Assembly: GCF_003334765.1 (NCBI RefSeq)
Contig: NZ_QOWT01000141.1
From: Escherichia coli
Lineage (GTDB): Bacteria; Pseudomonadota; Gammaproteobacteria; Enterobacterales; Enterobacteriaceae
Strand: one strand, 5' to 3'
DNA: 327 nt
Shown here: positions 1-327 of the stretch, piece by piece
Layout of the letters: each line of letters opens with the position of its first letter
How positions within the stretch are numbered: position 1 is the first letter of the stretch
Translations under genes and position numbers: made by a program
Notes under the pieces: model-generated
Databases searched by the model: none
What the model saw: the letters and a program-made list of their open reading frames with translations, nothing else
Told to the model about the DNA's origin: nothing

Positions 1-327
1 TCCAGCTCCCTGAGTGATTGCCATGCGCCGCTGGTAGAACACATTCGCCAGGGCGTGGTTACCCGCATTTATACCTCTGGCCTGCGCGGTCCACTGGCGG
101 AAGAAATCTCCCGTGGTCTGCTGGCGGAACCGGTGCAAATCCACTCTCACGGCGGACGTGTGCATCTGGTACAGAGCGGCGAACTGAATATCGATGTGGC
201 TTTCCTCGGCGTCCCGTCCTGTGATGAATTCGGTAATGCCAACGGCTACTCCGGTAAAGCCTGCTGCGGCTCCCTCGGCTATGCAATGGTTGATGCCGAC
301 AACGCAAAACAGGTCGTGATGCTTACC
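1..327 (+). CDS. citF: Citrate lyase alpha subunit (citrate CoA-transferase), internal fragment; partial at both 5' and 3' ends, codon phase 0 at position 1
   Basis: Seen in sequence: frame 1 is open across all 109 codons with no stop, while the other two + frames contain stops (TGA 12-14 and TGA 222-224 in frame 3; TGA 11-13 and TAG 35-37 in frame 2). Codon usage is strongly biased toward enterobacterial preferred codons: Leu CTG in 8 of 11, Arg only CGC/CGT, Gly mostly GGC/GGT. The translation contains the segments HSHGGR and VAFLGVPSCDEFGNANGYSGKACCGSLGY, which I recall from the E. coli CitF protein, in the N-terminal third. The identification is from memory, not a database search. Sub-family assignment within the CitF/MdcA-type CoA-transferase family (citrate lyase versus malonate decarboxylase alpha subunit) would need an alignment to confirm. 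Confidence 0.8.

Follow-up and report, generated by a model that had tools for sequence, protein, structure and literature searches.

The question raised by this stretch of Escherichia coli DNA is to which gene and to which locus it belongs. The window, as we call the whole stretch of 327 nucleotides that was analysed, had previously been read as a piece of citF, and from that gene identity it had been placed inside a citrate fermentation operon of the citCDEFXG type, with citE expected immediately upstream and citX and citG downstream, all on the same strand. None of this flanking context is visible in the window, as the original prediction already pointed out, because the window lies wholly within citF. 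According to our data, positions 1-327 are almost certainly an internal fragment of citF, which is fourth in the gene order of the chromosomal citCDEFXGT operon, situated between dpiBA and rna. The proposed location is supported, with two refinements. First, citT belongs to the operon as its seventh gene, so that the full form is citCDEFXGT (PMC2735749); second, the regulator genes dpiBA are directly upstream of the operon and divergently transcribed.

The identity of the gene can be read from the window itself. Frame +1 of the plus strand is free of stop codons across all 109 codons of positions 1-327, which correspond to codons 97-205 of the 510 codons of citF, the gene for the alpha subunit of citrate lyase (acetyl-ACP:citrate ACP-transferase). 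Both the start and the end of citF fall outside the window, and the remaining open reading frames (ORFs) that were mechanically listed are short or antisense. The encoded peptide matched a single Pfam profile, PF04223 CitF (E = 4.4e-61, model positions 55-163 of 466), and a single NCBIfam profile, TIGR01584 citF (E = 1.3e-51, 175.8 bits, model positions 78-186 of 492). The latter score is under the whole-protein cut-off of the model only because the peptide is a fragment of 109 residues; the full-length CitF encoded by a 100%-identical allele scored 815.3 bits on TIGR01584 against a cut-off of 501.45.

In a megablast search against complete E. coli genomes, the window was matched in 5,422 of 5,426, all of them over its full length and with at least 95% identity. 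The matches reached at least 99% identity in 1,284 genomes, and many were identical to the window (E = 6e-170), with the matched feature annotated as citF. The 100%-identical allele was found in lineages such as SK1144 and MCJCHV-1. In SK1144, whose analysed segment is referred to here as L001, the window corresponds to positions 9001-9327, in phase 0 of the 510-codon citF. Full identity over 327 nt, the Pfam CitF match and an NCBIfam match to citF alone confirm the gene assignment on which the proposed location had been built. A structural counterpart is the crystal structure of a Salmonella CitF (PDB 1XR4), which aligns with residues 29-509 of CitF (E = 6e-227), including residues 97-205 encoded by the window. 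This protein comes from another genus, is an orthologue or a paralogue with many substitutions, and is annotated only as a "putative citrate lyase alpha chain/citrate-ACP transferase". The window sequence is an already known gene in a well-studied locus. Its analysis is of bookkeeping value only, in that the window can now be labelled as an internal part of the citF of E. coli; it adds nothing to the knowledge of the locus.

The differences between alleles agree with the reading frame. Compared with E. coli K-12, the window has nine nucleotide differences, eight of them at codon position 3 of frame +1. Over the whole citF there are 36 differences from K-12, of which 33 are at codon position 3; the codon changes comprise 31 synonymous and 4 non-synonymous ones. 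A more divergent, Citrobacter-like copy, which is 81.6% identical to the window, differs from it at 61 positions, with 52 at codon position 3. This third-position bias, together with the excess of synonymous changes, indicates that the window is ordinary coding sequence under purifying selection. The whole CitF differs from that of K-12 at four amino acids, two of which fall in the window: S180T and M192I (from the window allele to K-12), at window positions about 250-252 and 286-288, respectively. Residue 192 is an arginine in the Citrobacter-like copy and seems to be a tolerant site, as it varies there as well. The K-12 citF (b0615) is the same gene, with the same operon position and the same neighbors, and only allelic differences separate it from the window allele; the protein accessions of CitC, CitD and CitE are the same in K-12 and in the genome bearing the window allele.

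The same substitutions bear on another possible reading of the window, according to which its 82-codon antisense ORF (positions 307 to 59, minus strand) would be an expressed, overprinted gene. This ORF is open both in the window and in K-12, and the operon is already reported to contain one antisense gene that overlaps a cit gene, nog1. However, nog1 lies within citC, as described for E. coli O157:H7, and does not overlap citF (PMC4683798). Its host gene citC is at L001 6428-7486, outside the window. Antisense ORFs of this length are expected by chance opposite a GC-rich gene, the substitutions follow position 3 of the sense codons, and in the Citrobacter-like copy the antisense ORF is interrupted by an in-frame stop. 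Moreover, the window and its surroundings showed no promoter-like site, and the window had no Rfam match. As a gene, the antisense ORF has no support, given the stop in the Citrobacter-like copy and the lack of a promoter-like site, and we regard its expression as very unlikely.

Coding sequence of citF thus remains the preferred reading of the window, and few other features were detected in it. The only repeat is a two-copy direct repeat of 18 nt, at positions 85-102 and 112-129, whose copies are 83% identical and 27 nt apart; no inverted repeats were found in the window. The two copies encode RGPLAE and RGLLAE, while the corresponding residues of the Salmonella CitF are RGKLGE and AGLMEN. 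Since the repeat is not conserved in the Salmonella protein, it is probably due to chance. An Rfam search of L001 6000-13400, with matches accepted at E <= 1, returned only two sub-threshold chance matches to eukaryotic snoRNAs, both outside the window.

The gene context was read from genomes carrying a sequence identical to the window and not from the source contig. To name the genes in SK1144, we translated the ORFs of the segment and scanned them against the curated cut-offs of NCBIfam, without relying on the deposited names. The order found was dcuC, followed by dpiA and dpiB on the minus strand, citC-citD-citE-citF-citX-citG-citT on the plus strand, and then rna and rnk. All six cit genes from citC to citG encode products that passed their NCBIfam cut-offs (in bits, with cut-offs in parentheses): CitC 593.6 (262), CitD 143.7 (65), CitE 452.1 on TIGR01588 (443.4), CitF 815 (501), CitX 265.9 (158) and CitG 643.1 (477). 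CitT was assigned to a DASS transporter subfamily with 573.8 bits. On the opposite strand, DpiB scored 1227 bits (656) and DpiA 520 bits (264), their genes being directly upstream of citC and divergent from it. This arrangement is the one described for K-12, in which citAB and the divergent citCDEFXGT are found beside rna (PMC2735749).

The neighbors of citF in the identical-sequence genome are those that had been foreseen. The citE gene (L001 7794-8702), on the same strand, is separated from citF by 10 nt; downstream, a gap of 3 nt leads to citX, which overlaps citG by 26 nt, both of them again on the same strand. The presence of citC and citD, which had also been listed as members of the operon, was verified upstream of citE, likewise on the plus strand. 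From citC to citT, the successive intergenic distances are +14, -4, +10, +3, -26 and +50 nt. The sole strong terminator-like hairpin on the plus strand (L001 13199-13226) is located after citT and consists of 11 pairs, nine of them G-C, followed by a run of T. The spacing of the genes and the occurrence of a terminator-like hairpin only after citT fit a single transcription unit, as far as can be predicted from sequence features.

Two other contexts had been named as outcomes that would contradict the proposed location, the first of them being a malonate decarboxylase cluster, with the fragment as an MdcA-type paralogue. Citrate lyase and malonate decarboxylase both have an acyl-carrier subunit carrying the same kind of phosphoribosyl-dephospho-CoA prosthetic group, and CitG and MdcB, the enzymes that make it, are homologous. 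We found nothing in favor of this alternative beyond that CitG/MdcB homology. The window peptide gave no match to an MdcA model, its only matches being citF in NCBIfam and CitF in Pfam, and no mdc genes were present within 9 kb on each side of the window in the identical-sequence genome. The neighboring synthase passed the CitG model, with 643 bits against a cut-off of 477, and fell below that of MdcB, with 254.3 bits against 282.35. With no mdc neighbors, a CitG instead of an MdcB and a peptide matching citF only, the MdcA context was rejected, and its probability can be considered negligible. The second such outcome, an isolated citF homologue or one among unrelated genes, did not hold either, as the cit block is contiguous in 5,418 of the 5,426 complete genomes.

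A location in the citCDEFXGT operon also has to be weighed against the other type of citrate cluster known from related bacteria, the so-called locus II of Klebsiella and Salmonella, in which citS-oadGAB-citAB is divergent from citCDEFG and citX is not required after citF. The existence of such clusters in relatives of E. coli is what speaks for this origin: in a Klebsiella record (NZ_OP378649.1, here L005), citF is directly followed by citG, next to dapB (PMC2735749). Since Klebsiella-type clusters run from citF to citG without citX, the expected presence of citX behind citF put the proposed location genuinely to the test. The 13-kb cluster of K. pneumoniae likewise shows the order citC-citD-citE-citF, and its CitF shares 82 of the 109 residues encoded by the window. 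It differs from the E. coli operon in having no citX after citF, in having citS (a Na+ symporter) and oadGAB where E. coli has citT, and in its chromosomal site, beside dapB (PMC2735749). At the DNA level, however, the identity between the window and the Klebsiella-type citF is only 70.3%, and a 3.5-kb citS-oadA probe, run in distant mode, gave no matches in the 5,426 complete E. coli genomes. The presence of citX after citF, the 70.3% identity and the null result of the citS-oadA probe together indicate that the window is of the E. coli locus I type. A cluster of the locus II type was rejected, given that citX follows citF, that citT ends the operon and that citS-oadA had no match; such an origin of the window is extremely improbable. 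As for the Klebsiella record itself (K. pneumoniae pKLP00155_3), it is 270 kb long and is typed as a non-mobilizable plasmid, and core chromosomal genes (dapB, carAB and kefFC) surround its citS-oadGAB-citAB/citCDEFG cluster. Possibly, this record is a piece of chromosome that was mislabelled.

How far the context seen in SK1144 can be extended to the window depends on how constant the locus is in the species. The 6.74-kb block from citC to citT was found contiguous, in one place and with at least 80% coverage, in 5,418 of 5,426 complete E. coli genomes. In genomes derived from MG1655 it has the same order and 98.0% identity. As the block is nearly invariant in E. coli, the neighborhood of citE and citX can be extended to the window. 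The window was absent from four of the 5,426 genomes. In E. coli strain a7, isolated from duck (NZ_CP122496.1), only positions 5514-6740 of the operon query, that is, most of citT, have been kept. This partial match implies a deletion extending from citC to citG and including the start of citT.

Constancy of the block leaves one more origin to be considered, namely, that the window derives from an additional or mobile cit copy, on a plasmid, extrachromosomal or duplicated, instead of the native chromosomal locus. Such copies do occur. An IncHI1A conjugative plasmid carries the whole dpiAB-citCDEFXGT-rna segment beside IS26 and IS66, a circular record of 113 kb named peccDNA113 bears a cit segment of the E. 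coli type, and a second chromosomal match was detected in 45 genomes for the window and in about 50 for the whole operon. The copy on the IncHI1A plasmid, however, shares only 81.6% identity with the window and is restricted to 2 genomes, and that on peccDNA113 is 97.2% identical, compared with 100% for many chromosomes. We therefore give this origin no more than a slim chance and retain the native chromosomal locus as the source of the window. Additionally, the gene order around citF is the same in every readable extra copy, so that the claim of an operon location would hold even for these.

The extra copies show some features of their own. In E. coli MSB1_9D (NZ_LR890350.1, L002 1-18326), the segment running from dpiAB-citCDEFXGT-rna to rnk-uspG is directly beside IS26/IS66 transposase genes. 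The segment seems to be a chromosomal cit locus that was picked up from a different enterobacterium; the source is probably Citrobacter-like, to judge only from the protein accessions. This plasmid-type segment was present in 2 of the 5,426 E. coli genomes. The record of peccDNA113 (NZ_CP110860.1, L006) is filed as a plasmid and contains rlpA, dacA, lipB and lipA, then the cit operon, and further on ahpCF, dsbG and ybdO. Its gene complement consists of ordinary chromosomal genes with K-12-type protein accessions, and the record appears, on this gene content, to be a circularised chromosomal segment and not a true plasmid. Most of the "plasmid" matches to citF of the E. coli type consist of very large records or of chromosomal segments that have been circularised, and the gene order in them is unchanged; several of the matches other than peccDNA113 are records of 0.3-4.9 Mb. 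In strain 3CM (NZ_CM137008.1, L004), the second chromosomal match was not found within 20 kb on either side of the native locus. Being more than 20 kb away from it, the second match in 3CM is not a tandem copy; it could be a segmental duplication, an acquired copy or an assembly artefact.

The function of the locus follows from what is known about citrate lyase. Anaerobic fermentation of citrate requires a co-substrate, and control of the cit operon by DpiBA in anaerobic citrate conditions is established knowledge. Within the enzyme, the gamma subunit CitD would be the acyl carrier bearing the prosthetic group. The alpha subunit CitF, part of which is encoded by the window, is expected to swap the acetyl residue on the thiol of this group for a citryl residue taken from citrate, releasing acetate; the beta subunit CitE would then cleave the citryl-ACP to oxaloacetate, regenerating acetyl-ACP. 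As regards maturation, CitG would make the triphosphoribosyl-dephospho-CoA precursor of the prosthetic group and CitX would attach it to apo-CitD, after which acetylation of the group by CitC would yield the active enzyme. These subunit roles have been described in the literature, as has the acetyl-ACP:citrate ACP-transferase activity of the CitF family (EC 2.8.3.10), to which the E. coli protein is assigned by its predicted family membership (PMC10798043). Citrate itself would be brought in by CitT in exchange for succinate, in agreement with its description as a citrate/succinate antiporter (reference in PMC2735749). Switching on of the operon would depend on the sensor kinase DpiB and the response regulator DpiA, a regulation by DpiBA (CitAB) that is taken here from the literature (PMC2735749). 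A further protein linked to the expression of the cit genes is CitR/YbdO, a LysR-type regulator encoded nearby (PMC9068703). Both the chemistry of the enzyme and its regulation are given here from established knowledge; gene identity, reading frame, selection, gene order and conservation were computed in the present work.

On its downstream side, the locus adjoins the citT-rnk region, which is reportedly known from a long-term evolution experiment in which aerobic use of citrate evolved. A few kilobases beyond the cit operon there is also a strain-variable gene, ybdR, which encodes a zinc-dependent alcohol dehydrogenase. This gene is absent between yldA and uspG in SK1144 (L001 14959-15083), and it is present in strain 3CM (L004 28530-29768) and in the K-12-type segment of peccDNA113 (L006 20958-22196).
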